In this document: positions 40,895 through 64,000 of the stretch, one piece after another
How the letters are laid out: each line of letters opens with the position of its first letter
How positions within the stretch are numbered: the first letter of the stretch is position 1
Source: an uncultured Pelagibacteraceae bacterium
GTDB taxonomy: Bacteria > Pseudomonadota > Alphaproteobacteria > Pelagibacterales > Pelagibacteraceae
DNA: 64,000 bases
Direction: 5' to 3'
Assembly (NCBI GenBank): GCA_902612605.1
Contig: CACMDY010000003.1
Span: 41,253-105,252 of the forward strand
Translations under genes and position numbers: made by a program
The notes under the pieces: model-generated
What the model saw: the letters and a program-made list of their open reading frames with translations, nothing else
Told to the model about the DNA's origin: nothing
Databases searched by the model: none

Positions 40895-41776
40895 ATGAAT
40901 TTATTAAAAAATAAATCTATTACCAAAGTTATAATTTTATCTATATCAGGATTTTTTATTTTAGTTTGCCAAGACTCTACTGCAAAATATCTTGGAACAC
41001 TAATGCCATTAAATCAAGTTATTTGGGGTAGATTTTTTTTTCACTTTGTTATTATTTTAATTTTATTTGCAATATTAAAACCTAAGTTAAACTTAAAAAG
41101 CAATTTTAAAATTAATATTATTAGATCCATATTAATGGTGTTTGCTACTTTTTTTTTTATTCATTCTTTACAAAAATTTGACCTTGTAGATATCTATGTA
41201 GTTTTCTTCTCAGCTCCGTTAATAGTATCAATTCTGACAGCATTATTTTTAAAAGACATTCTTTCACCTAAAGGTATAATTTTAATGTTATTAAGCTTCG
41301 GGTGTATAATTTATTCAATGAGTCCTAGTATGAAAGTCTTAAGTTTAGACTTGATTTTTCCTTTGGTGCCACCAGTATGTTGGGCTTTATATCAATTTTT
41401 TACAAAATTTATTTCTGGTAATAACGATCCTTTAGTGGCGTTATTTTATGCTGCTGTTGTAGGTGCTATAGTTTTTTCTATTTATGTAATTTTAGACTGG
41501 ACTCCTATTGAAAATAAAAGGTTGTGGATTTGGTTAGTATTTCTAGGTGTATTAGGTTTTACTAGTCACCTTTTAATTATATTTGCAATTCAACTATCAA
41601 ATTTATCTTTTGTAACTAATTTTCAATATTCACAATTAATTTGGTCAACATTAATCAATTTTTATATATTTGGAGTACCTTTTGATTTTAATAAAACTTT
41701 TGGAGTTATTGGAATAATAGTTTTTGGGGTTTTATTTGTTCAGGCCGAAAGTAGAAAAAAGAAAATTAATTCTTAA
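40895..41776 (+). CDS. DMT/EamA-family transporter
   Basis: About 10 TM segments with duplicated EamA-like halves (VIWGRF, F.APLI...L...FLK, FQYSQLIW). Confidence 0.85.
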   Translation: MNLLKNKSITKVIILSISGFFILVCQDSTAKYLGTLMPLNQVIWGRFFFHFVIILILFAILKPKLNLKSNFKINIIRSILMVFATFFFIHSLQKFDLVDIYVVFFSAPLIVSILTALFLKDILSPKGIILMLLSFGCIIYSMSPSMKVLSLDLIFPLVPPVCWALYQFFTKFISGNNDPLVALFYAAVVGAIVFSIYVILDWTPIENKRLWIWLVFLGVLGFTSHLLIIFAIQLSNLSFVTNFQYSQLIWSTLINFYIFGVPFDFNKTFGVIGIIVFGVLFVQAESRKKKINS

Positions 41777-44216
41777 AATCTTTATTGTTTAGAGGTTTTT
41801 CTAATACCTCAACTGGATATTTTTGTTTTTCAATTTCAATGTATATATTTTTGTCTTTTAATGTTTCAACTGTATTTCCAGAATTGACATATCCAAATGA
41901 AAGATTTTTATCATAACAAAAAGAATAATTTCCTGAAGTTGTTCTACCAATTATTTTGTCATCCATATAAATTGGTTCTTCATGTAGTAAAAGTGGCTCA
42001 CCTGGTTTGCTATCTTTAAGAGTAAACATCATCATCCTTTTATCTAATCTTTGGTCCTTAATTTTTAACAGAGCATCTTTTCCAATAAAGTTGACATTTT
42101 TTTTATAACTAATTGCAAATTTTAAACCTGCTTGATACTGATTTTCTTCTGGTGAAATATCATGTCCCCAGTGAACAAATCCACATTCCATTCTCATAAT
42201 ATCCATAGCATGCATTCCACAATGAGACAGTTCAAAGTTTTTTCCTTCTTGAATCAGAATTTCATATAAATTCTTAGCAAAACTTGATTCAACATAAAGT
42301 TCAAATCCCAATTCACCAACATAAGAAAGTCGTTGAGCCCAAACTCTAACACCATTTATCATTATGAACTTTCCAGTTCCAAACTTAAATTTATCGTTAC
42401 TAAAATCATCATTGCTTATTTTCGAGATCATCTCTCTACTCTTTGGACCAAACAATCCTAAACAACAAATATCCTCTGTTACATCTTTAAAAGATACGTC
42501 TTCATTTAAATATTTTAAGATATGGTATTTATCGTGTTCTCTTGTAGCTGCAGAGCTTACAACTCTAAAAAAGTTTTTATCCATACATACAACAGTTAAA
42601 TCTGTTTCTATTCCCCCATCTTCATTCAGCATATGAGTATATGTTGTTTTACCAATTTCGTTTTTAATGTTAGCGGTACATAACTTTTGAAGTTCTTGAT
42701 GAGTTTTTTCCCCTTTTAAATCAAACTTTGAAAAAGTTGAAAAATCAAAAAGTCCAACATTTTTTCTTGCATTTAAAGTTTCATGCTTTGCTGATGGGTA
42801 CCAATTTTGATAATTAAAACTATATTCATATTTAGGTTCTTTACCATTTAAAGAATACCACATCGGCCTCTCAAAACCTCCTGCAACTCCAAAGCAAGCT
42901 CCAGCATTTTTTAATTCCTCGTGATAAGGTAAAAGCTTTTGATTTCTTGATGTATTGTGCTGTTTAAATGGCCAATGCATTCCATACAAATCACCAAGTG
43001 TTTCTGTAACTCTTTCCATAATAAAGTTTTTTGAAGAGTGAAATTTCTGAAATCTTTTAATATCTAATGAAAATAAATCCTCATTTATATGTCCGTTCAT
43101 CATCCATTCAGCTGTTACTCTGCCCGCACCACCTGAACTTGCTATTCCAATACTATTAAAACCACAACACGTGTATAAATTTTTTAACTCAGGAGTTTCA
43201 CCTAATAAATACTGTGTATCTGGAGTAAAAGATTCTGGGCCTGAAAAAAATTTTCTAATTCCTGCGCTTTCTAACATTGGTAATCTATGAAATGATTTTT
43301 CTAAATACGGTTCAAAATGATCAAAGTCATCAGGAAGTTCTCCAAAAGAAAAATCATCAGGTACTCTTCCTGTCTCCTTAAATGCTGGTTTTGCATTTGG
43401 TTCAAAAATTCCAACAAGCATTTTCCCCGCATCTTCTTTCAAATACAAACATGCATTATAATCTCTTAAAACGGGAAGATTTTGAGGTAAATCTTTCATT
43501 GGCTCGGTAATTATATAAAAATGTTCATTTGGGTATAAAGGAACACTAACATTAATTTCTTCACCTAGTTGTCTAGACCACATTCCTGTAGCCATAACTA
43601 CATACTCACAATCTATAATACCTTTTTCTGTTTCTACTCCGCTTATTCTTGAATTTTTTGTAAGTATTTTTTTTACAGGAGTTTTTTCAAAAATTTGAGC
43701 ACCTTCCATTCTTGCAGCTTTTGCAAGAACGTTAGTAACTCCAACAGGATCTGCTTGTCCATCTTTTGGCATGTAAACGCCACCTACAAGATCTTCACTA
43801 TGTATCACTGGATATAATTCTTTTAGTCTTTTATGATTTAAAACTTCTACTTCAACATCAGACAATTGTGCAGTCGTTGCTTGTCTTAATAATTCTTGCA
43901 TTCTTTCTTTAGTAGAAGCAACAGTAATTGCACCATTCTGCTTCATTCCAGTTGATAATCCTGTGGTCTTTTCTAATTCTTTATAAAGATCTAACGAGTA
44001 TTTTCTAATTTTAGTAATTGTAGATGATGCGCCTAATTGACCTAGAAGACCTGCTGCGTGCCAAGTAGTTCCTGATGTTAATTGATCTCTTTCAAGTAAT
44101 ATTACATCTTTCCATCCAAATTTAGCTAAATGATAAGCACAAGATGTTCCTGCAACACCTCCACCTATAACTACTACTTTACATTCTTTTGGTAAATCTT
44201 TAATCATTCTTAACAA
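41766..44216 (-). CDS. FAD-dependent oxidoreductase with GcvT-like THF domain (sarcosine dehydrogenase-like)
   Basis: GGGVAG, covalent-FAD motif TTWHAAGL, GPESFTPD, GFERP, YVGELGFELY and MECGFVHWG. Confidence 0.88.
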   Translation of the reverse strand: MLRMIKDLPKECKVVVIGGGVAGTSCAYHLAKFGWKDVILLERDQLTSGTTWHAAGLLGQLGASSTITKIRKYSLDLYKELEKTTGLSTGMKQNGAITVASTKERMQELLRQATTAQLSDVEVEVLNHKRLKELYPVIHSEDLVGGVYMPKDGQADPVGVTNVLAKAARMEGAQIFEKTPVKKILTKNSRISGVETEKGIIDCEYVVMATGMWSRQLGEEINVSVPLYPNEHFYIITEPMKDLPQNLPVLRDYNACLYLKEDAGKMLVGIFEPNAKPAFKETGRVPDDFSFGELPDDFDHFEPYLEKSFHRLPMLESAGIRKFFSGPESFTPDTQYLLGETPELKNLYTCCGFNSIGIASSGGAGRVTAEWMMNGHINEDLFSLDIKRFQKFHSSKNFIMERVTETLGDLYGMHWPFKQHNTSRNQKLLPYHEELKNAGACFGVAGGFERPMWYSLNGKEPKYEYSFNYQNWYPSAKHETLNARKNVGLFDFSTFSKFDLKGEKTHQELQKLCTANIKNEIGKTTYTHMLNEDGGIETDLTVVCMDKNFFRVVSSAATREHDKYHILKYLNEDVSFKDVTEDICCLGLFGPKSREMISKISNDDFSNDKFKFGTGKFIMINGVRVWAQRLSYVGELGFELYVESSFAKNLYEILIQEGKNFELSHCGMHAMDIMRMECGFVHWGHDISPEENQYQAGLKFAISYKKNVNFIGKDALLKIKDQRLDKRMMMFTLKDSKPGEPLLLHEEPIYMDDKIIGRTTSGNYSFCYDKNLSFGYVNSGNTVETLKDKNIYIEIEKQKYPVEVLEKPLNNKDFKN

Positions 44217-49378: not shown

Positions 49379-50269
49379 TTAAAATTCCCACTCAGAAATT
49401 TTACTGTAAAGGAAGTTTCTAAAAGCTTGAACTCTAGCAACATTTTTAAGTGATTGAGGATATACAAAGTGTGCCTCTGTTGTTGGACCTTGAACACTTG
49501 GTAAAACTTTAACGATATTTGGTTGTTTGACAGTTAAGTAATCTGGTATTGCAGCTAATCCTACACCACTTTGAACGGCTAATAGTAAACCATAAACACT
49601 GTTTACTCTCATTACAGTTTTTCTTTTTTTATTATCTTTCATTCCAAGTTTTAATGCCCAATCTGGATTATAAACAGGAGATGGAGCTCCTCTACCAAAT
49701 GAAATAAAGTTGTGCTTATTTAAGTCATTAATTGTCTTAGGATATCCGTGTTTTTCTAGGTATTTTGGTGATCCATATATATGATAGTTAATATCAATCA
49801 GCTTTTTTTGAATATAGTTTAACTGTTTTGGTCTTCTCATAAATATACCAATATCCGCTTGTCTTGTACTTAAATCTAGTTCTCTATCATCAAATATCAG
49901 TTCAACTTCAATTTCAGGATTGAGTTGCATAAATTCTTGGATTCTTGGTGTTAACCAGGTTGTTCCAAAACTAACTACTGTTGTTACTGACAGTTTTCCG
50001 GAAGGTTTGTGTTTTTTATCTCCTAAGGTTGTTTCTACCTCTTTTAATTTAGAAATAACTTCATGTGCTGTTTTAAATACATATTCTCCATTTTCAGTTA
50101 GTGTTAAACCTCTCGCATGACGTTCAAATAATTTAACTTTTAAATCTTCTTCTAAAGATTGAATTTGTCTACTAATTGCAGATTGACTTAGATTTAGAAT
50201 TACTGTTGCGCTTGTAAAACTACCTGCCTCAGCAACTGCATGAAATATCTTTAATTTATCCCAATCCAT
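49379..50269 (-). CDS. LysR-family transcriptional regulator
   Basis: MDWDKLKIFHAVAEAGSFT...LSQSAISRQIQSLE helix-turn-helix, LFERHARGL and a LysR substrate-binding domain. Confidence 0.95.
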   Translation of the reverse strand: MDWDKLKIFHAVAEAGSFTSATVILNLSQSAISRQIQSLEEDLKVKLFERHARGLTLTENGEYVFKTAHEVISKLKEVETTLGDKKHKPSGKLSVTTVVSFGTTWLTPRIQEFMQLNPEIEVELIFDDRELDLSTRQADIGIFMRRPKQLNYIQKKLIDINYHIYGSPKYLEKHGYPKTINDLNKHNFISFGRGAPSPVYNPDWALKLGMKDNKKRKTVMRVNSVYGLLLAVQSGVGLAAIPDYLTVKQPNIVKVLPSVQGPTTEAHFVYPQSLKNVARVQAFRNFLYSKISEWEF

Positions 50270-51270
50270 TATTTATTTACATCCACTACTATTTTATGTT
50301 TTAAATTTCCTTTTAATATATCTGGATAGACATTTAATAATTCATCTAATCCAATAGTATTTACTGATTTCTCTAAAATATTAAAATCTAACAAAGCAGG
50401 AAATTCTCCCCATACAAACTCTTTTCTTTTTTTACTGATGTTAACAGAGTCTACTCCCCATAATTTTACTGCTCTTAATATAAATGGAATTACTGATGTA
50501 TTTAATTTATTACCACTAGTATTTCCACATATAGCAACAATTCCTTTTGGTTTAGTTTGAGCAATTGCATTCGATAAAATGTTACCACCAACGGTATCTA
50601 CAACGCCATCCCATGTTCCTTTATCTATTAATCTTGCTTCACCCTCAAATTCTTTACGATCTATAACGTTTTTTGCACCAAGTTCTTTTAGATATTCAGC
50701 TTTATCTGGTTTTCCAGTTATAGCTGTTACATTAATTCCCATTTTAGCAAGAACCATTACTGCAACCATACCAACACCTCCTGTAGAACCAGTTACCAAT
50801 ACATCGTTTACTTTTGATTGCATTAATAGTTCCTCTCTTGCTTTAACTGCAAAGGCACATAACAAACCTGTAAGACCAGCAGTTCCCAAAATCATAGCTT
50901 GTTTATTTGTCATTCCCTCAGGTGTTTTTGTAATATGATCTTTTTTTACTTTTGCATATTGAGAATATCCACCATCAAAAAGTTCTCCTGCTCTACAACC
51001 TGTTAATATAACTCTGTCTCCTTCTTTAAATTCTTCACCATCTCCTTGTGCAACAGTTCCAGAAAAATCAATACCAGGTATTCTTGGATACTCTTTAACT
51101 AATTTACCACCATCTTTTAGTATCATTGCATCTTTCCAATTAAGATCGGAATAATCTATCTTAACTAGCACCTCACCATCTTTAAAATGATCTAAACTTA
51201 GTTCTTTGACTTCTCTTGTAAAATTTTCGTTCTGATTGTTTATTACAACTGCTTTAAATGAGTCCGCCAT
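50269..51270 (-). CDS. acuI: Acryloyl-CoA reductase AcuI/YhdH family (MDR)
   Basis: YSDLNWKD, PRIPGIDFSG, GGYSQYA, GTAGLT, VTGSTGGVG, VDTVGG, PFILRAV.LWGVDS motifs. Confidence 0.85.
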   Translation of the reverse strand: MADSFKAVVINNQNENFTREVKELSLDHFKDGEVLVKIDYSDLNWKDAMILKDGGKLVKEYPRIPGIDFSGTVAQGDGEEFKEGDRVILTGCRAGELFDGGYSQYAKVKKDHITKTPEGMTNKQAMILGTAGLTGLLCAFAVKAREELLMQSKVNDVLVTGSTGGVGMVAVMVLAKMGINVTAITGKPDKAEYLKELGAKNVIDRKEFEGEARLIDKGTWDGVVDTVGGNILSNAIAQTKPKGIVAICGNTSGNKLNTSVIPFILRAVKLWGVDSVNISKKRKEFVWGEFPALLDFNILEKSVNTIGLDELLNVYPDILKGNLKHKIVVDVNK

Positions 51271-56015: not shown

Positions 56016-56765
56016 TTAAATTACCTTAGCCTCATTTTTTAATTTTTGCACTAATTCTTCTACACTAGCGACTTTTATTCCAGCTTTTCTTTTTGGTGGT
56101 TCCTCAACTTTAATTTGTTCGATTCTAGGATTAATATCAACTCCTAAATCTGAAGCATTTAACTGTTCTATTGATTTTTTCTTCGCTTTCATAATATTTG
56201 GAAGCGAAGCATATCTTGGTTCATTTAGTCTTAAATCACATGTAACAATAGCTGGAACATTTACTTCAATAGTTTCTAAACCTTCATCAATTTCACGAGT
56301 TACTTCTAATGCATTATCTTTAACTTCAATTTTCGATGCAAAAGTTGCTTGAGGCCAATTTAATAAAGCTGCAAGCATCTGACCAGTTTGATTACAATCA
56401 TCGTCAATTGCTTGTTTTCCCATAAACACCAAATCAGGATTTTCTTTTTCTACAATTTTTTTCAAAATTTTTGAAACTGCTAATGGCTCAATCACATTAT
56501 CAACTTTGACATGTATTCCCCTATCCGCTCCAACAGCTAATGCTTTTCTAACAGTTTCTTGAGCTTTTTCTTCACCGATTGTAATTGCAACTATTTCTTT
56601 AGCTTTGCCAGCCTCTTTAATTTTTACTGCTTCTTCTATTGCATTATCATCTGGTGGATTTGTTGACATTTTAACGTTGTCAGTAACAACACCAGAACCA
56701 TCTTCTTTAACTCTTATTTGAACGTTGTAATCAATAACTCTTTTAACTGCGACTAATATTTTCAT
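56016..56765 (-). CDS. etfB: Electron-transfer flavoprotein beta subunit
   Basis: [29 protein letters not shown] and [15 protein letters not shown] motifs. Confidence 0.96.
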
Positions 56766-59197
56766 TAAGCACTTAATAAATTGTTTTCTGGATCGTAAGG
56801 ACTTTCATCTAAAATTGTAGCATCATATTTCTCACCTAATATTTCAATTTTAAGTTTTTGTCCAACATTTGCTAATTCTGGTTTAACCATACCTAATGCT
56901 AATGATTTTCCAATTCTAAAACCAAAATCTCCTCCTGTAGCTCTTCCTATAACACTTCCATTTTCATAAATTGGATTGTTGCCTAATACATCTGCATCTT
57001 TTGGATTATGAACCTCCAAGGTAACAAGTTTGTTATCAAAACCTTTTTCTCTCCACTTGTTTAATGCTTCAAGTCCAATAAAACTTCCTTTATTAGGATG
57101 TATAAATCTATCAAGACCACTTTCATAAGGTGAGTATTCTATTGATAGTTCTGTTCCAACCAATTTATACGATTTTTCCACTCTCAAACTATTCATTGCT
57201 CTAATACCATATGGCTTTAGTCCAAGATCTTGTCCTGCTTCCATAAGTTTATCAAAAATGTGATTTTGATATTCAATTGGATGATGAAGTTCCCATCCTA
57301 ATTCACCAACAAAATTAACTCTCATAGCATTTACTGGTGCGTACCCTACATCAACCATTTTTGCACTTAGCCATTTAAAGTTTTCATTTGAAAAATCATC
57401 TTTTGAAACTCTTTGCATTAACTCTCTTGCTTTTGGACCTGAAACAACCAAAACTCCATTACTATTAGTTAAATTTTCAAACTGCACTGAACCGTCTGAA
57501 GGCATCCATTTTAAAATCCAATCATGATCTAATCTTTGGAAAGCTCCTGCTGATACTAAATAAAAGCTATCATGTGACTCTCTCATAATAGTAAATTCAG
57601 AATGAACTCCGCCTTTAGTATTTAAAGCATGACATAAATTAATTCTTCCAACTTTTTTTGGTAATTTGTTTGCAACTAAATTATCTAAAAATTCCTCAGC
57701 ACCAGGTCCTTTAATTCTACATTTTGCAAATGCAGTCATATCCAAAAGACCAACATTTTCTTTTACATTTTTGCATTCTTTTTCCATTGCATTGAACCAT
57801 TTTGATCTTCTAAATGACCAATCATCTTTTTGCTCCATTCCATCAGTTGCAAAAAAATTAGGTCTTTCCCATCCAAATTTTTGACCAAACACTGCTCCTA
57901 AATTTTTCATTCTGTCATAACATGGCGCTGTTCTTAATGGTCTTGCTGCTGGTCTTTCTTCATCAGGAAAGTGGGTTATGAAAACGTGACTGTAGGCTTC
58001 TTCATTTTTAGCTTTTAAATATGATTTAGAGCAATAATCTCCATACCTTCTTGGTTCAACACCAAGCATATCAATTGTGGGTTCACCATCTACAATCCAT
58101 TCAGCAAGTTGCCATCCTGCTCCACCTGCTGCAGTGATACCAAAACTATGACCTTCATTTATCCAAAAATTTTTCAATCCCCAAGCAGGACCAACAATTG
58201 GGTTACCATCAGGTGTATAACAAATTGCACCGTTATAAACTTTCTTAACTCCTACCTCTCCAAACGCAGGGACTCTATGTATTGCACCTTCAATGTGTGG
58301 AGCCAATCTATCCAAATCTTCCTGAAATAATTCATATTCAGAATCTTTTGATGGTCCATCTACATAACAAGCTGGTGCTCCATCTTCATATGGTCCTAAA
58401 ATTAATCCACCTGCTTCTTCTCTCATGTACCATCTGCTATCACTATCTCTTAAAACTCCCATCTCTGGTAGTCCATCTTTTTTTCTTTTTTGAATTTCTG
58501 GATGAGGTTCAGTAACAATGTATTGATGTTCTACTGGGATTACTGGAATATCTAAACCAACCATCTTTCCAGTTTGTCTTGCAAAATTTCCTGAACAAGA
58601 AATAATATGTTCACACTCTATAGATCCTTTATCTGTTTCAACAACCCAACCATCTTTGGTTTGTTTCATTCCAACAACATTTGTATTTCTATAAATTTCT
58701 GCTCCTCTATTTCTTGCGCCTGTAGCAAGAGCTTGTGTTAAATCTGCTGGTTGAATATATCCATCTTCAGGGTGTTGTATTGCACCTACTAAATCTGATG
58801 TATTACATAATGGCCAGATTTCCTTAACTTGGTCTGGAGTTAAAAATTTTACATCAACACCTATTGTTTGAGCAACACCTGCGTATTGAAAGTATTCATC
58901 CATTCTATCTTTAGTGCTTGCTAATCTAATATTTGATACAACGCTGAAACCTACATTCTTACCTGTCTCTTCCTCTAAAGTTTTATATAAATTGACAGCA
59001 TACTTATGAAGTTGTCCTACAGAATAACTCATATTAAATAGTGGTAATAAGCCCGCTGCATGCCAAGTTGAACCTGATGTTAGTTCTTTTCTTTCAATTA
59101 AAGCAACATCTGACCAACCTTTTTTTGCTAAGTGATAGAGTGCGCTAACCCCTACTACTCCACCACCAACTACAACAACTTTTGCTTTGGATTTCAT
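56765..59197 (-). CDS. FAD-dependent oxidoreductase with GcvT-like THF domain (dimethylglycine dehydrogenase-like)
   Basis: [38 protein letters not shown] and [10 protein letters not shown] motifs. Coupled to etfB (TAATG). Confidence 0.88.
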
Positions 59198-59243: not shown

Positions 59244-59447
59244 TTATTCATCATCTGCGTCACGCCAGCCCATTCTGAACATTAAATAAGCGGCAACTAT
59301 AACGGAAATTGTACCTACTACCATGCCAATATTAATCCCAACTTCACTTCCCCAAAAATACCACCCAAGTTGAGTAGATGAAATTGTTGGAAAGCATAAT
59401 ATAAACATTAGAATTGCGTACCTAATATACATTGGAGGCTTTTTCAT
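59244..59447 (-). CDS. Small two-TM membrane protein, 67 aa
   Basis: Start moved from 59501 to 59447 (TAATG overlap with the upstream stop). Sequence MKKPPMYIRYAILMFILCFP... has two hydrophobic helices. Confidence 0.7.
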   Translation of the reverse strand: MKKPPMYIRYAILMFILCFPTISSTQLGWYFWGSEVGINIGMVVGTISVIVAAYLMFRMGWRDADDE

Positions 59448-59908
59448 TATATTGATGATCCCATTGGTATTGGTTGTGAAACCGCTGTTGTTAGCCAGCA
59501 ATCTAAAAGATTGCCTTCTTTATTATTCTTTTCAACTTTCCATTTAAATTTAAAATATTGTTTGTCCTTATCCAAGACAACAACTTCATAAGTTGCCATT
59601 GCACTTGATTTGTAAATTTCAGTTACTGTATTTTCTTTGTGATCAATCAGCATCGAGTATGAAGCCCCTTTTAACATTCTTTTAAATCTATCTAATGGAC
59701 CTGTCATCCTTTGATTATTTGGATGTGCAAATTCCCATGTTTGCTCAATCCCTCTATCTTTATATGGACTGTCATTTTTCATTAATGCCTTTAATTGAAT
59801 TAAAACAACTTGTTTTGGATCTATATTCACACTTGGTTTTAAAACATCGGCAAATGAAGAATTAAAATAAAAAAATGTAATTAAAAAAAATAAAATTTTG
59901 AATTTCAT
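59447..59908 (-). CDS. Exported DUF4864-like protein
   Basis: Signal peptide; P..VV.IQL.AL..ND, G.E..WEFA.P.N...GP..RF..M...Y.ML and C-terminal W.T.AV pattern. Confidence 0.65.
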   Translation of the reverse strand: MKFKILFFLITFFYFNSSFADVLKPSVNIDPKQVVLIQLKALMKNDSPYKDRGIEQTWEFAHPNNQRMTGPLDRFKRMLKGASYSMLIDHKENTVTEIYKSSAMATYEVVVLDKDKQYFKFKWKVEKNNKEGNLLDCWLTTAVSQPIPMGSSI

Positions 59909-59974: not shown

Positions 59975-60400
59975 TTATATAGTTTTGAATAATCTATCGT
60001 ATTCGTTTTTAATACATTTATTAGAGATATAATAAATTTTATTTTGAGAGACTAATTTAGCTGCATTTTCGTTGTGAATTCCTAATTGCAACCATAATAC
60101 ATTTGCACCAATTTCTATTGTTTGTTTTGCTATTTCCTCAGCCTCTTCACTAGGTCTAAAAACATTAACAATTCCAACATGATCTTTAATATCCGTTAGT
60201 TTTTTATAAACTGGTTCACCATGTATAATTTTATTATCTGTTACTGGATTAACAGGAAAAACTTTGTAACCTGTATTTCTTAAATATTTCATTATTATAT
60301 TGGAAGTTTTTTTTGAGTCTGGGCTTGCTCCGACAATTGCTATCGTCCTATAACTTAAATATAGTTCTTTTATTTTTTCATCTAAAAGTGTTGTATCCAT
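59975..60400 (-). CDS. CoA-binding domain protein (YccU-like), paralogue 2
   Basis: TIAIVGAS, PVNP, VNVFRP, LWLQLGI and NKC motifs. Confidence 0.88.
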   Translation of the reverse strand: MDTTLLDEKIKELYLSYRTIAIVGASPDSKKTSNIIMKYLRNTGYKVFPVNPVTDNKIIHGEPVYKKLTDIKDHVGIVNVFRPSEEAEEIAKQTIEIGANVLWLQLGIHNENAAKLVSQNKIYYISNKCIKNEYDRLFKTI

Positions 60401-60408
60401 AATTTGAT

Positions 60409-60858
60409 TTAAATTTTAAGATCTAGTCGCGGTTTCCAAAATGGTCTGAAGAGTTCAATTTTTGGACATCTATTCATAACTACTTTTAAACCTGCATCTT
60501 CAGCAATTTTTGCTGCATCATGATTAATTACACCTATTTGTCCCCATAATACTTTTGCTCCAATTGATATTGCCTCTTCAGCAATTCCATAAAGATCCTC
60601 AGATTTTCTAAATACTTCAACCATATCAACAGGTCTATCGATAGCAGATAAATTTGGATAAACTTTTAAATTTCTAATTTCCTTTATACCTGGTTTAGGA
60701 TTTACAGGTATCATGTCATAACCAGTTTCATGCAAAACTCTTAGCACACCATAACTAAATTTAGTTTTATCTGGGCTAGCACCAACCATAGCAATTGTCT
60801 TAACTGAGCTTAAAATATCTTTTAAATATTCAGCGCTATAAGGTTCGTTGTGGTTCAT
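60409..60858 (-). CDS. CoA-binding domain protein (YccU-like), paralogue 1
   Basis: TIAMVGAS, PVNP, VEVFR, LWGQIGV and MNRCPKIE motifs. Confidence 0.9.
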   Translation of the reverse strand: MNHNEPYSAEYLKDILSSVKTIAMVGASPDKTKFSYGVLRVLHETGYDMIPVNPKPGIKEIRNLKVYPNLSAIDRPVDMVEVFRKSEDLYGIAEEAISIGAKVLWGQIGVINHDAAKIAEDAGLKVVMNRCPKIELFRPFWKPRLDLKI

Positions 60859-60860
60859 GT

Positions 60861-61226
60861 TTATTTTTTTTCTTCCTTTTTACTCGCGATATCTGCTTTT
60901 AATTCATGAGGTTCTAAAGGATCTAGGAAAGGATTTCGATACAATTTATCATGACTTTCAACTCCTATCTCAATTGTGCAATCTGTTTTTGCTTTAGCAA
61001 CACATAAAATAATATATCCATCATTGATTTGTCTATTGTTTAAAGCAACTTGAGAACGTTGATCTACTTCTCCATTAATTAGTTTAGCTGCACATGTAAT
61101 ACATCCCCCATACTGACATCCGTATGGAAGATCGACACCTTGATCTCTTAATTCGTTTAATAAAGGTTTTTTTCCACTGACTTCAAATGCACTGTTATTT
61201 CTGTTTGAAATTGTAATCTTTGTCAT
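60861..61226 (-). CDS. Plant-type [2Fe-2S] ferredoxin with C-terminal extension
   Basis: LPYGCQYGGCITC...ILC (Cx4Cx2C...C). Start moved from 61247 to 61226 (ATGA overlap with the SBP56 stop). Confidence 0.9.
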   Translation of the reverse strand: MTKITISNRNNSAFEVSGKKPLLNELRDQGVDLPYGCQYGGCITCAAKLINGEVDQRSQVALNNRQINDGYIILCVAKAKTDCTIEIGVESHDKLYRNPFLDPLEPHELKADIASKKEEKK

Positions 61227-62575
61227 AGCCAGATGTCGCTTGTGCAATCTCCACCTGGATATCTACTTTCATGGCACCTACTAGGTCCATTTGGTTCTTT
61301 ACCAAAATCAACAATAAAATCTTTATTAATTTTCATCCCACCATTTTCAACATCACAATCAATCATAATCATTGCTCCACCCTGCTTTCTTATTTCAGGA
61401 TAAAATTGATTATCCCATGTAGAAAATAATGATGTTGTTACATACATTCTTTTACCATCTAAGGATAATTGATACATTTGAGGTCCACCAGCAATTTTGA
61501 CACCGTTTACTTCTGGAGCCTTTCCTAACAATCCACCCATCCAAACTTGACCAGTTAATTTAGGTTTGTGCGGATCTGAAATATCATATTGCCTCATATC
61601 TCCATGAAGCCAATTATTTATATAGAGATATTTATCATCCATTGAAACTAATATCGCTGACATAACTCCAGGTACAGGGATTGGCCAATCAGGATGTGGT
61701 TCATTTTCAACATCAATTATTTTTTCCCATTCCCATTTTCCCTCTTTTGATTTCCAAAAATGAATTACATTTGCGCTTAGCGCTGCACCGCAAAATCCAT
61801 GACTACTGTCGGGATTATGCATAAATTTTACTTCTAATGGTATTAAACCATCTTCACCTAAATACATTGTTTGAACTGGCTCTTTTTTTTTAAAATCCCA
61901 GACATGAAGTCGTCTACCATATTTCAAATGACCAACTTCCTCTAAATCAAATCCAGGCATAAAAGTATTAGGAGCCGCCCATTCAGAACTAACCATCACA
62001 TTATGTCTTGGTTGGTACCAGAAGTCATAACTAAAAGGTATGTCTCCCATTGAATTTTCCCATCTACCTACAATTTCAAAATCTTTATTCAAATGTAAAT
62101 ATCCTCCTGGTGCTTCTCCTCGAGCGTCTCCAAGAAAAGAAATGATAATTTCAGAACCTAGGCAATGAACTGTATGTGGTCCTGATAAATTAGTTTTTTT
62201 CTTTATTTCAGATCCATCTACTACTTTATGTATTTTTGGAGCTCTAGGATCGGATGCAGTATCAACAACATAAATATTATTTGATCTAACACCTGGAACT
62301 AATAAATATTTTCTGCTCATGTTTGAGTCACCATGGCAAGAAGAACATGCATTCCATCCCATGTGATGCAATTCATCACCAATACCTGGCATTTCAAGTC
62401 TATGAATTACTTTAGAATATGTGGGGCTTTGAGGATCAACATCGACAGTTGCTAAATAGTCTGGTTTTTGTATTCCCGTCCCTGTGTAGATAGCTATTGT
62501 ATATAAAAGCTTTTCTTTTGGCGCTTTTATTGCTTCTGCAGGACTAGCATATCCAGGACCACAGCATCCATCCAT
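61223..62575 (-). CDS. Selenium-binding protein 56 family (SELENBP1/methanethiol-oxidase-like), cytoplasmic
   Basis: CCGPGY.SP, PDYLATVDVDP, DELHH.GWN.CSSC, YDFWYQPRHNVM.SSEWAAP, NWLHGD, GGPQM.QLSLDG and RYPGGDC.SDIW motifs. No signal peptide. GGAG SD. Confidence 0.93.
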   Translation of the reverse strand: MDGCCGPGYASPAEAIKAPKEKLLYTIAIYTGTGIQKPDYLATVDVDPQSPTYSKVIHRLEMPGIGDELHHMGWNACSSCHGDSNMSRKYLLVPGVRSNNIYVVDTASDPRAPKIHKVVDGSEIKKKTNLSGPHTVHCLGSEIIISFLGDARGEAPGGYLHLNKDFEIVGRWENSMGDIPFSYDFWYQPRHNVMVSSEWAAPNTFMPGFDLEEVGHLKYGRRLHVWDFKKKEPVQTMYLGEDGLIPLEVKFMHNPDSSHGFCGAALSANVIHFWKSKEGKWEWEKIIDVENEPHPDWPIPVPGVMSAILVSMDDKYLYINNWLHGDMRQYDISDPHKPKLTGQVWMGGLLGKAPEVNGVKIAGGPQMYQLSLDGKRMYVTTSLFSTWDNQFYPEIRKQGGAMIMIDCDVENGGMKINKDFIVDFGKEPNGPSRCHESRYPGGDCTSDIWL

Positions 62576-62635
62576 GATTGATTTTCTCCTTTGATTACAA
62601 CTTAAACTTTTTTTTAAGTGACTTCAACTTAATGG

Positions 62636-63409
62636 TTATTTGTTTTTCCAACTTGGATTTCTTTTTTCAATAAAAGCACTAATACCCTCTTTGGCATCAT
62701 AAGATGACATATTAAGTGTCATCATCTTACTTGTGTAATCATAAGCTTTACCTAATGGCATTTCTAATTGTTTATAAAAACCTTTTTTACCTATTTTGAT
62801 GGTTAAATTTGATTTTGAAGATATTTTTTTTGCAATATCTAAAACTTTTTTATTCAAAGTTTTTGGACTGTAATGATCATTAATTAATCCAATTTCCTTT
62901 GCATATTTTGCACTAATTGGATCACCGGTAAGTAGCATTTCCATCATTCTTTTTCTACTGATTTTTCGACTGACAGCGACCATTGGAGTACTGCAAAATA
63001 ATCCAATTTTTACTCCAGGTGTAGCAAATGTTGCTGAGTTTGTACTATATGCAAGATCACAACTTGCTGCTAATTGACATCCAGCTGCGTAAGCTGCTCC
63101 ATGTACTTTAGCTATCACTGGTTTGTTTCCTTCAACAATTTGCATCATAAGTTTTGAACAAAGTTTAAACAGTTTTAGATGATTAGATCTATTTTTTATA
63201 CCTCTTACCTCTTTTAAATTGTGACCTGCACTAAATCCTTTGCCAGCCCCTTCTAAAATAATAACTCTAGTTTCTTTATCGTTATCTAATTTTTTGAATG
63301 CTTTTAATAAAGACGAAAGAGTATTGTATGATAAGGAATTATAAGTTTTTGGATCATTAATTAAAACTCTTTTAACACCCGGTGATACTTTATTTATTTT
63401 TACAGTCAC
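62636..63409 (-). CDS. Enoyl-CoA hydratase/isomerase (ECHDC3-like)
   Basis: FSAGHNL, HG.A.AAGCQL.ASCDL, TPGV.IGLFCSTP and EG..AF.EKR motifs. Confidence 0.9.
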   Translation of the reverse strand: MTVKINKVSPGVKRVLINDPKTYNSLSYNTLSSLLKAFKKLDNDKETRVIILEGAGKGFSAGHNLKEVRGIKNRSNHLKLFKLCSKLMMQIVEGNKPVIAKVHGAAYAAGCQLAASCDLAYSTNSATFATPGVKIGLFCSTPMVAVSRKISRKRMMEMLLTGDPISAKYAKEIGLINDHYSPKTLNKKVLDIAKKISSKSNLTIKIGKKGFYKQLEMPLGKAYDYTSKMMTLNMSSYDAKEGISAFIEKRNPSWKNK

Positions 63410-63784
63410 TTATTTTAATTTACCTTCTTCTCTCATCTTGGCTCTAATTTTAGTTGCTGAAATTTTTTGGATTTCTTCAGACAAAACTATTTCTTCAATT
63501 TTATATCCAACACCTCTTCCATAACAAATATTTGTAATATTAGGAACAAGCATAATTTTGAACCTGCCCTCAAACTCTGGATTAAGTTTTTCTTCAATAT
63601 TTTTCTTAACTGTTTCAAAATCAAATGGATTATCATCAACACCTTGTACATCTCTAATTTGAATACATACTTGTCCTGTTTTTTTTATAATTTCCTTAAA
63701 TAGAGTATAGTGACCATCATGAAACGGTTGCCATCTTCCTAACATTTGAGCAGTTGGTTTTTTATTGTCCCATTGATACGTCAT
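63410..63784 (-). CDS. Minimal HxGH-type nucleotidyltransferase (cytidylyltransferase-like)
   Basis: MLGRWQPFHDGH, YGRGVGY and ISATKIR motifs. Start moved from 63817 to 63784 (ATGA overlap). Confidence 0.75.
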   Translation of the reverse strand: MTYQWDNKKPTAQMLGRWQPFHDGHYTLFKEIIKKTGQVCIQIRDVQGVDDNPFDFETVKKNIEEKLNPEFEGRFKIMLVPNITNICYGRGVGYKIEEIVLSEEIQKISATKIRAKMREEGKLK

Positions 63785-64000
63785 TTTTTTATCTCCTTTA
63801 AAATCTTTGGTGCCCAAGACTTAGCATCTTGCGATGTAACATGAAAATCATATTTTTCTGGTTTAACAAACATTTTATTAGTGTCATCAAACCTACCTTC
63901 TTTTATAGTATCTACCCAAACTACATAATCTGCAGGAAATAAACTTCTTGCCTTTGGAGTTGGGCAAATAAAATCCGCAATCACATAATTTCCTTCATCT
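63781..64000 (-). CDS. P-loop kinase, adenylyl-sulfate-kinase (CysC)-like, C-terminal part (partial)
   Basis: The frame stays open to the right edge: ...DEGNYVIADFICPTPKARSLF..VWVDTIKEGRFDDTNKMFVKPEKYD. This resembles the C-terminal half of short CysC-like proteins. The P-loop itself is outside the window. Confidence 0.6.
   Translation of the reverse strand, partial: DEGNYVIADFICPTPKARSLFPADYVVWVDTIKEGRFDDTNKMFVKPEKYDFHVTSQDAKSWAPKILKEIKK

Follow-up and report, generated by a model that had tools for sequence, protein, structure and literature searches.

A SELENBP1-type predicted methanethiol oxidase gene linked to ferredoxin and CoA-binding protein genes in SAR11 and other bacteria

A cluster of genes on the minus strand of a 64-kb stretch of SAR11 (Pelagibacteraceae) DNA, 64,000 nucleotides in all and referred to here as the window, encodes an SBP56 protein of the type represented by human SELENBP1, a plant-type [2Fe-2S] ferredoxin (Fer2) and a coenzyme A (CoA)-binding protein of the CoA_binding_2 family (CoA1). 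These three genes constitute a unit, SBP56–Fer2–CoA_binding_2, whose reality and conservation in at least four phyla we regard as virtually certain. The SBP56 protein itself appears to be a further representative of an already characterised enzyme subtype, that of the methanethiol oxidase of Roseobacter denitrificans (RdMTO); what appears unreported is the gene linkage.

Linkage was examined in both directions. An alignment of SBP56 sequences was scanned against one genome per species, and the best 80 of 593 relatives, together with one metagenome contig, yielded 81 loci. Fer2 was located directly 3' of SBP56 on the same strand in all 81, and a CoA_binding_2 gene directly followed Fer2 in every locus with room for it (80 of 80). 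The trio was present in Pelagibacteraceae, Rhodobacteraceae, SAR116, Granulosicoccaceae, Spiribacter, Hyphomicrobiales, Geminicoccaceae and Acidimicrobiia, and at least 31 SAR11 species-level genomes carry it. In the reverse direction, an alignment of diverse Fer2 partners was scanned against metagenome contigs, yielding 80 loci from soil, rhizosphere, sediment and sea water. SBP56 lay directly 5' of Fer2 in 75 of the 75 loci possessing at least 200 nucleotides of upstream sequence, CoA_binding_2 adjoined Fer2 in 68 of 72 loci with room, and no member of the Fer2 subfamily was found without SBP56 among these metagenome loci. Conservation of the operon, including in SAR11 and roseobacters, had been set beforehand as a test in the original prediction for this DNA, and the linkage held in both scans.

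More distant homologues were sampled in ten distinct contexts, with SBP56 at 68–77% identity. Chloroflexota retained the trio with the order swapped, CoA_binding_2 being ahead of Fer2, and two other lineages carried the trio in the original order. An open reading frame (ORF) of 123 amino acids ahead of CoA_binding_2 in locus L090 was checked as a candidate ferredoxin and is not one.

In-frame fusions of Fer2 to CoA_binding_2 were present at 8 loci, comprising 7 metagenome contigs and a SAR11 single-cell genome (L030). The junction took the form …LYRNPF-(6–10 amino acids)-MDHDQDYPADYL…, with more of the ferredoxin tail retained in L103. Such fusions indicate that Fer2 and its CoA-binding neighbour work together as a physical unit. 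Fer2 homologues in a set of 5.8 billion proteins gave 3,699 matches, and the 120 listed were all SAR11-like, of 117–135 amino acids and without fusions. The percent identities of SBP56, Fer2 and CoA1 co-varied across loci (r = 0.90–0.96), a correlation to which shared phylogeny contributes. The linkage thus persists through a change of gene order, divergence of Fer2 to approximately 50% identity, many flanking contexts and fusion of the partners, and it is far beyond chance.

Gene spans in the window, which has a G+C content of approximately 30%, were read directly from the sequence and a list of ORFs. The five genes described earlier, namely a crotonase-fold gene (ECH), SBP56, Fer2 and two CoA_binding_2 genes, were all present at the coordinates given for them. 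In the order of transcription, the features are as follows.

63410..63784, minus strand: cytidylyltransferase-like small protein (CTL); weak CTP_transf_like and NMNAT-like matches
62636..63409, minus strand: ECH, ECHDC3-type crotonase-fold protein of 257 amino acids; NCBIfam PRK08139, 338 bits, cutoff 313
62576..62635, minus strand: spacer of 60 nucleotides between ECH and SBP56; Shine-Dalgarno-like AGGAG 13 nucleotides before the ATG
61223..62575, minus strand: SBP56, SELENBP1-type (RdMTO-type) predicted cytoplasmic methanethiol oxidase of 450 amino acids; Pfam SBP56, 692 bits
60861..61226, minus strand: Fer2, plant-type [2Fe-2S] ferredoxin of 121 amino acids; Pfam Fer2, 50 bits
60409..60858, minus strand: CoA1, first CoA_binding_2 protein, YccU-like, 149 amino acids; Pfam CoA_binding_2, 127 bits; 2 nucleotides after Fer2
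59975..60400, minus strand: CoA2, second CoA_binding_2 protein, 141 amino acids; Pfam CoA_binding_2, 116 bits; 8 nucleotides after CoA1

The stop codon of SBP56 overlaps the start of Fer2 as ATGA (…tgg cta TGA / ATG aca aag…), confirming the coupling of the two genes that had been proposed. The likely start of Fer2 is the ATG at 61226 (MTKITISN), in agreement with the orthologues; the ORF list had placed it at a TTG at 61247. A scan of the locus for promoters and terminators returned counts equal to the shuffled expectation, with no signal above chance, and the ends of the operon are therefore not definable by such a scan.

Residues 4–450 of SBP56 cover positions 2–453 of the 453 in the PF05694 profile, and the best structural match was the archaeal SBP56 of PDB 2ECE (432 bits, aligned from residue 9). 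In an alignment of 19 SBP56 sequences, H70/H71, H134/H137 (HTVH), D184, E248, C77, C138, C444 and NWLHGD were invariant; among these are the HH and HTxH candidate copper ligands and the NWLHGD motif to which the original prediction had drawn attention. The copper ligands proposed for RdMTO are His75/76, His139/142, Asp189 and Glu253 (PMC13603461), which correspond to the window residues H70/71, H134/137, D184 and E248 at a constant offset of 5. The 'cluster 1' methanethiol oxidases of Rhodobacteraceae have been defined by the motifs GWNACS and HTV(I)HC together with GGDCS(T) (Cao et al. 2024, PMC10936201). SBP56 of the window possesses GWNAC77S, HTVHC138 and GGDC444T, all three invariant in the alignment. 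Its N-terminus, MDGCCGPGYASPAEAIKAPKEK, was read by eye and contains neither a hydrophobic nor a twin-arginine segment, and no export signal was seen. The NCBIfam model for the exported enzyme MtoX (NF052453) scored 162 bits against an equivalog cutoff of 650, and neither SCO1/SenC nor MauG was matched among all ORFs of at least 60 amino acids scanned between 59244 and 63984. These results uphold the earlier assignment of the protein as cytoplasmic and SELENBP1-type, and argue that it is very probably an orthologue of the RdMTO/SELENBP1-type cytoplasmic methanethiol oxidases and not of MtoX.

RdMTO has been demonstrated to degrade methanethiol (Cao et al. 2024, PMC10936201) and was subsequently described as a strictly copper-dependent oxidase converting methanethiol to H2S, H2O2 and HCHO, approximately 53% identical to human SELENBP1 and active also on ethanethiol and propanethiol (2026, PMC13603461). 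In the 2024 work an adduct, Cys-S-S-CH3, was observed and sulfane sulfur was reported as the product (Cao et al., PMC10936201). The enzyme was expressed alone in Escherichia coli in both studies (PMC10936201, PMC13603461). The suggestion that the window might encode an undescribed intracellular methanethiol-oxidation system has therefore been overtaken by the 2024 and 2026 papers as far as the enzyme is concerned, since the same subtype was characterised there.

The window SBP56 is 99–100% identical to genes of single-cell genomes from Pelagibacteraceae, among them AG-912-A14 and AG-900-I13, which assigns the window to a SAR11 bacterium. It is 85–90% identical to orthologues of Rhodobacteraceae, SAR116, Granulosicoccaceae, Spiribacter and Acidimicrobiia, and 75–77% identical to those of Chloroflexota. 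Near-identical marine sequences form clusters of thousands of members. Identities of 85–90% between SAR11, with its 30% G+C, and lineages as distant as Rhodobacteraceae, gammaproteobacteria and Acidimicrobiia (L074, L076, L078, L081) were far higher than expected. They imply that the module as a whole has spread horizontally, that it is under extreme constraint, or both. Three further proteins deserve mention. A 414-amino-acid sequence annotated 'Methanethiol oxidase [Nymphon striatum]' (P0078), the species being a sea spider, shares 77% identity with the SAR11 SBP56, far above the approximately 53% between RdMTO and human SELENBP1, and probably represents bacterial contamination or transfer. 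An SBP56 protein of 563 amino acids (P0066), suspected to be a fusion, proved to be a chimeric assembly with an unrelated tail. One of 604 amino acids (P0002) shares an 81-kb contig with a normal trio in L001.

Comparison with known systems places the window enzyme closest to 'cluster 1'. It shares with RdMTO the three cysteine motifs, an N-terminal CC, co-linear copper ligands (offset 4–5) and the lack of a signal peptide, and is approximately 88% identical to the Rhodobacteraceae members sampled; it differs in its SAR11 host and in being known from sequence alone, whereas RdMTO has been studied biochemically as an enzyme by itself. Human SELENBP1 belongs to the same family, is cytosolic and has the proposed copper ligands and the C-terminal RYPGGDC(S/T)SDIW, but is a stand-alone eukaryotic protein with neither a ferredoxin nor a CoA-binding partner. 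MtoX of Hyphomicrobium sp. VS and Ruegeria pomeroyi belongs to the SBP56 superfamily, oxidises methanethiol and is linked to the catabolism of dimethylsulfoniopropionate (DMSP), yet is periplasmic, carries a signal peptide, is co-transcribed with SCO1/SenC and MauG genes, and has a single conserved cysteine in TCQSPYM (Eyice et al. 2018, PMC5739008). Both systems have an IclR regulator gene 5' in many bacteria. SBP56 of Sulfurisphaera (Sulfolobus) tokodaii (2ECE) is the only solved structure matched, with the same fold and no signal peptide. This protein and the bacterial paralogues resembling RlMTO belong to another subtype, and the copies near the trio in L065, L095 and L097 have no Fer2/CoA pair of their own. 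A second cytoplasmic paralogue of this kind is located a few kb away from the trio in Nioella (L065:1555–2955) and in soil contigs (L095; L097:1–1059), and a rhodanese gene follows it in the two soil contigs; two cytoplasmic SBP56 subtypes are thus co-located.

The four cluster cysteines of Fer2 (C-x4-C-x2-C…C) were invariant. Fer2 scored 74.5 bits with TIGR02008, slightly below the cutoff of 81, and its best PDB match reached 74 bits. A C-terminal extension of approximately 30 residues, SHDKLYRNPFLDPLEPHELKADIA, is kept from SAR11 to Actinobacteriota, with a SHD-x-LY-x-NPF core conserved everywhere. This extension marks Fer2 as a distinct ferredoxin subfamily, with the signature C-x-YGGC-x-x-CAA … GV-x-x-H-x-x-x-Y-x-NPF.

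Both CoA-binding proteins match PF13380 over their full length. CoA1 matches PDB 2DUW (122 bits), further CoA_binding_2 relatives being PH1109 and TT1466; it is 70–76% identical across phyla and ends in the near-invariant sequence RCPKIELFRPFWKPRLD. CoA2 is 43% identical to CoA1, does not possess the ELFRPFWKPRLD tail and is confined to the window's own SAR11 subclade (L002–L014); in other SAR11 subclades its place 3' of CoA1 is taken by a gene for a Flavodoxin_2 NAD(P)H oxidoreductase or for a BT1-family transporter. On these grounds CoA2 is an accessory divergent paralogue outside the module, and the view of CoA1 and CoA2 as tandem duplicates was rejected. Of the tandem YccU-like partners put forward for SBP56, CoA1 alone is retained as a conserved partner. 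Fer2 and CoA1 are specialised proteins of the SBP56 unit, the binding of CoA by CoA1 being predicted from its family. Searches of the literature on YccU, PF13380 and YneT found nothing on the function of CoA_binding_2 proteins. In MmoC, BenC, PaaE and YfaE a plant-type [2Fe-2S] domain similarly stands beside, or is fused to, a Rossmann-like domain and serves one oxygen-using enzyme; the window differs in that the partner is a flavin-less YccU-type CoA_binding_2 protein and not a flavin adenine dinucleotide (FAD)/NAD reductase, and the corresponding NCBIfam matches were far below their cutoffs.

The gene upstream of SBP56 had been labelled an enoyl-CoA hydratase. Its product has a crotonase fold (Pfam ECH_1, PF00378, 182 bits), and its top PDB matches were the mycobacterial homologue 3MYB (216 bits) and human ECHDC3, 2VX2 (214 bits), with all others at 131 bits or below. 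The window protein aligns end to end with ECHDC3 and shares with 2VX2 and 3MYB the motifs SAGH(D/N)LKE and GLFCSTP. Two glutamates of ECHS1, in GGC-E-LA and QP-E-I, are catalytic. Alignment with human ECHS1 (2HW5, 8ZRU) revealed Q and G at these positions in the window protein, replacements that are common to 2VX2 and 3MYB. With both glutamates gone, neither an ordinary hydratase activity nor a DmdD-like one on methylthioacryloyl-CoA is likely for this protein, and the hydratase label is replaced here by that of an ECHDC3-type crotonase-fold protein. The idea that it acts like DmdD in releasing methanethiol was downgraded for this reason and because its nearest relatives are of the ECHDC3 type. 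The 50 PDB matches with E<1e-20 included no chain named DmdD, a result that involves no direct sequence comparison with DmdD or AcuH; 5XZD, which we take to be an AcuH, scored 105 bits.

Members of the PRK08139 family recurred by the trio in three phyla, always above the cutoff (363–428 bits). In SAR116, Rhodobacteraceae, Granulosicoccaceae and Hyphomicrobiales they lie 3' of the trio, in Anaerolineae they come directly after Fer2, and in Spiribacter and Levibacter they are on the opposite strand. This recurrence in differing arrangements supports a functional tie to the trio, whose neighbourhood frequently has the ECHDC3-type protein as its fourth member; the linkage was absent in the soil lineages sampled. 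To our knowledge ECHDC3 has no established function, and the sole paper found to name both ECHDC3 and methanethiol was an unrelated proteomics study.

Other genes recur near the trio outside SAR11. A divergent IclR regulator was present at 26 loci, a single-domain rhodanese directly followed the CoA-binding gene in many, and genes resembling persulfide dioxygenases (Blh/ETHE1-type) were also found. A DmdA-like aminomethyltransferase occurred near the trio at 23 loci (366 bits, cutoff 410), and an acyl-CoA synthetase of the PRK08162 family followed ECH at 8. These recurrent neighbours point to the handling of methanethiol and sulfane sulfur in the context of DMSP and methionine.

In four marine metatranscriptomes, contigs 93–100% identical to the window covered all of the cluster's genes to a similar depth and bridged the CTL/ECH, ECH/SBP56, SBP56/Fer2, Fer2/CoA1 and CoA1/CoA2 junctions, which is compatible with a single transcript and shows the unit to be transcribed in the ocean. 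A field study of NAC11-7 Rhodobacteraceae reported consecutive genes for a 'CoA-binding domain protein', a 'ferredoxin' and a 'selenium-binding protein' that were differentially expressed in the same direction, with ratios of 0.42, 0.34 and 0.47, and were filed under unrelated categories (PMC10203303). Full-text literature searches found no paper tying SBP56 or methanethiol oxidase to a ferredoxin or a CoA-binding protein, and a term search of the two RdMTO papers (PMC10936201, PMC13603461) found mention of neither ferredoxin nor an operon or gene cluster. None of the papers found describes the module, the Fer2–CoA fusions or the recurring neighbour of the ECHDC3 type.

On balance we lean towards the cluster being a cytoplasmic module for the oxidation of methanethiol, or of short alkyl thiols, with the Fer2·CoA-binding pair as physiological partner of SBP56. 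SBP56 would cleave the C–S bond of methanethiol oxidatively, giving formaldehyde and either sulfide or an enzyme-bound sulfane sulfur. Fer2 may dock through its conserved C-terminal tail and pass single electrons to or from the metal/cysteine site of SBP56, so that the reduction of O2 would be complete and no free H2O2 would be released in the cytoplasm, or so that the persulfide or mixed-disulfide intermediate of Cao et al. would be resolved. The CoA thiol held by CoA1 might accept or relay the sulfur as CoA persulfide, and the sulfur could then go on to the rhodanese and the persulfide dioxygenase whose genes are adjacent in other taxa, or be reduced to sulfide for assimilation in SAR11. The mechanism is inferred, and the specific roles it gives to Fer2 and CoA1 are tentative and held with low confidence. 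The sulfur-relay step draws support from the rhodanese gene after the CoA-binding gene, the persulfide-dioxygenase-like genes nearby, and the Cys-S-S-CH3 adduct and sulfane sulfur found for RdMTO (PMC10936201).

Several observations weigh against a partnership of this kind. The linkage thins among more distant homologues: of the ten contexts sampled, three had neither partner, two had Fer2 only and one had only a CoA-binding gene, 2.9 kb off. We know of no chemistry that would give a YccU-type CoA-binding protein a role, and no ferredoxin reductase was consistently linked to the module loci. RdMTO and human SELENBP1 are active alone in vitro, hence the partners are dispensable for basal turnover, and eukaryotic SELENBP1 is without them altogether. 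The metatranscriptome contigs are unstranded and assembled, and may include DNA. Both the direction in which electrons would flow and the sulfur's fate are proposals outside the reach of the computations made. A bolder extension, which we hold to be rather unlikely, is that the bacterial SELENBP1-type oxidase is a three-component system whose real reaction differs from that of the isolated enzyme, perhaps being ferredoxin-coupled, releasing no H2O2 and yielding CoA persulfide or sulfide, and that the recurrent ECHDC3-type linkage places two human proteins, SELENBP1 and the orphan ECHDC3, in a single conserved thiol/acyl-CoA pathway.

Copper enzymes of the cytoplasm are very unusual among bacteria, and RdMTO is poorly metallated; these two facts make it attractive to regard Fer2 and the CoA-binding protein as maturation or maintenance factors, serving to insert the metal or reduce it or to maintain the active-site cysteines or cofactor in an active state, an explanation that we nonetheless judge unlikely. 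RdMTO produced in E. coli without its neighbours contained approximately 0.17 Cu per protein, and the authors suggest that chaperones may be missing (PMC13603461). Parallels exist in MauG and SCO1 of the MtoX operons, which have dedicated maturation genes (PMC5739008), and in the ferredoxin YfaE of ribonucleotide reductase, to which Fer2 is weakly similar. However, no [2Fe-2S] ferredoxin or YccU-type protein is known to act as a metallochaperone, and human SELENBP1, with only 0.4 Cu per protein and no such factors, is still active. The ATGA overlap and tight junctions are also compatible with near-equal expression, which fits subunits better than chaperones required in catalytic amounts.

Alternatively, the substrate might be CoA-linked, a short sulfur-containing acid being activated by the neighbouring acyl-CoA synthetase and processed by the ECHDC3-type crotonase, with the resulting thiol, thioether or mixed disulfide, either CoA-bound or freed from CoA, delivered to SBP56 by the CoA-binding protein in place of free methanethiol. 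Up to three CoA-related genes accompany SBP56 (CoA_binding_2 nearly always, the PRK08139 ECH in three phyla and PRK08162 at 8 loci), and DmdA-like genes stand at 23 loci, as would fit such a route. It is made improbable by the activity of RdMTO on free methanethiol, ethanethiol and propanethiol, by an ECH that has lost both glutamates of hydratases and whose nearest structural matches are neither DmdD nor AcuH-like, by the absence of the ECH and synthetase linkage from the soil lineages sampled, and by a DmdB model scoring far under its cutoff. That the three genes are functionally uncoupled passengers of a horizontally spread mobile cassette is very unlikely: the unusual similarity of the proteins across phyla (SBP56 is 85% identical between SAR11 and Acidimicrobiia) does suggest horizontal spread, but the linkage outlasts a change of order, approximately 50% Fer2 identity, varied flanks and fusion events, the Fer2 subfamily was never seen without SBP56, and nothing in the base composition of the window points to recent acquisition.

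In the breakdown of marine DMSP and methionine, methanethiol is a major intermediate; it is also the substrate of human SELENBP1. The mechanism and products of SELENBP1-type enzymes are disputed, with H2S and H2O2 reported on one side and sulfane sulfur on the other, and with a low copper occupancy of the recombinant protein; all of the published biochemistry concerns the lone protein. That genes for a ferredoxin and a CoA-binding protein accompany the SBP56 gene across phyla, at times fused to each other, points to components missing from those assays and offers a testable handle on the mechanism. The three-component reading, if true, would resolve the dispute over products. The carriage and expression of the module by at least 31 SAR11 genomes bear on whether methanethiol from DMSP is released or consumed, and the module bears equally on the supply of reduced sulfur to SAR11 cells, which are deficient in sulfate reduction. 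For ECHDC3, the linkage would provide a first functional lead.

AcuI, one-carbon enzymes and the DHAP shunt elsewhere in the window had been read as fitting the methanethiol theme. A gene of the acrylyl-CoA reductase family to which AcuI belongs is present approximately 9 kb away (50269–51270; TIGR02823, 379 bits, cutoff 297; AcuI equivalog below cutoff), adjoined by a LysR regulator (49379–50269). No dmd genes flank the cluster, and dmdA, dmdB and dmdC were all absent among the window genes scanned there. Two genes combining FAD and GcvT domains, resembling dimethylglycine/sarcosine dehydrogenases, are located at 41766–44216 and 56765–59197, with electron-transfer flavoprotein (ETF) and ETF-quinone oxidoreductase (ETF-QO) genes between the nearer one and the rest. 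Judged by these families, this is a one-carbon/demethylation neighbourhood. Translations of the genes beyond CoA2 gave, in order, a secreted DUF4864 protein, the dimethylglycine-dehydrogenase-like protein, ETF-β, ETF-α and ETF-QO. The DUF4864 protein, with a signal-peptide-like N-terminus, and an 85-amino-acid hydrophobic ORF without a family match come after the cluster at 59244–59908; DUF4864 occurs 3' of the module in all SAR11 subclades and in no other taxon.

Two unrelated contigs (L087:8030–10952 and L090:706–3437) carry genes for an FMN-dependent 2-hydroxyacid dehydrogenase-like protein, a thiamine pyrophosphate enzyme and a GcvT-like protein beside SBP56. The thiamine pyrophosphate enzyme resembles acetolactate synthases and 2-hydroxyacyl-CoA lyases and scored below all family cutoffs; as neighbours in Chloroflexota-type loci, neither this enzyme nor the FMN-dependent one fell into a specific family.

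Further genes of the SAR11 loci lie past the end of the window at 64000. EgtB-like (DinB_2 and FGE-sulfatase) and EgtD-like (Methyltransf_33) genes stand side by side (L007:373–1590, L013:1590–2552), approximately 4.5–5.6 kb 5' of SBP56. The pair suggests ergothioneine-type thiol-histidine biosynthesis in this SAR11 clade, near the putative thiol-oxidase module. The alpha subunit of a Rieske/ring-hydroxylating oxygenase and a small S-adenosylmethionine (SAM) methyltransferase (L011:3194–4369 and L011:2561–3190) precede the APS-kinase-like, CTL and ECH genes in 17–18 SAR11 loci, with no reductase partner for the Rieske enzyme seen nearby. The stop codon of CTL abuts the start of ECH, and CTL was found 5' of ECH in SAR11 loci only; it is a SAR11-specific neighbour outside the cross-phylum module. 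Directly 5' of CTL in 27 SAR11 loci is a gene for a P-loop protein of 136 amino acids with an APS_kinase/AAA_33 match (63781–64000 in the window, where it runs off the end; L014:4385–4795), the two genes forming a small nucleotide-kinase/nucleotidyltransferase pair.

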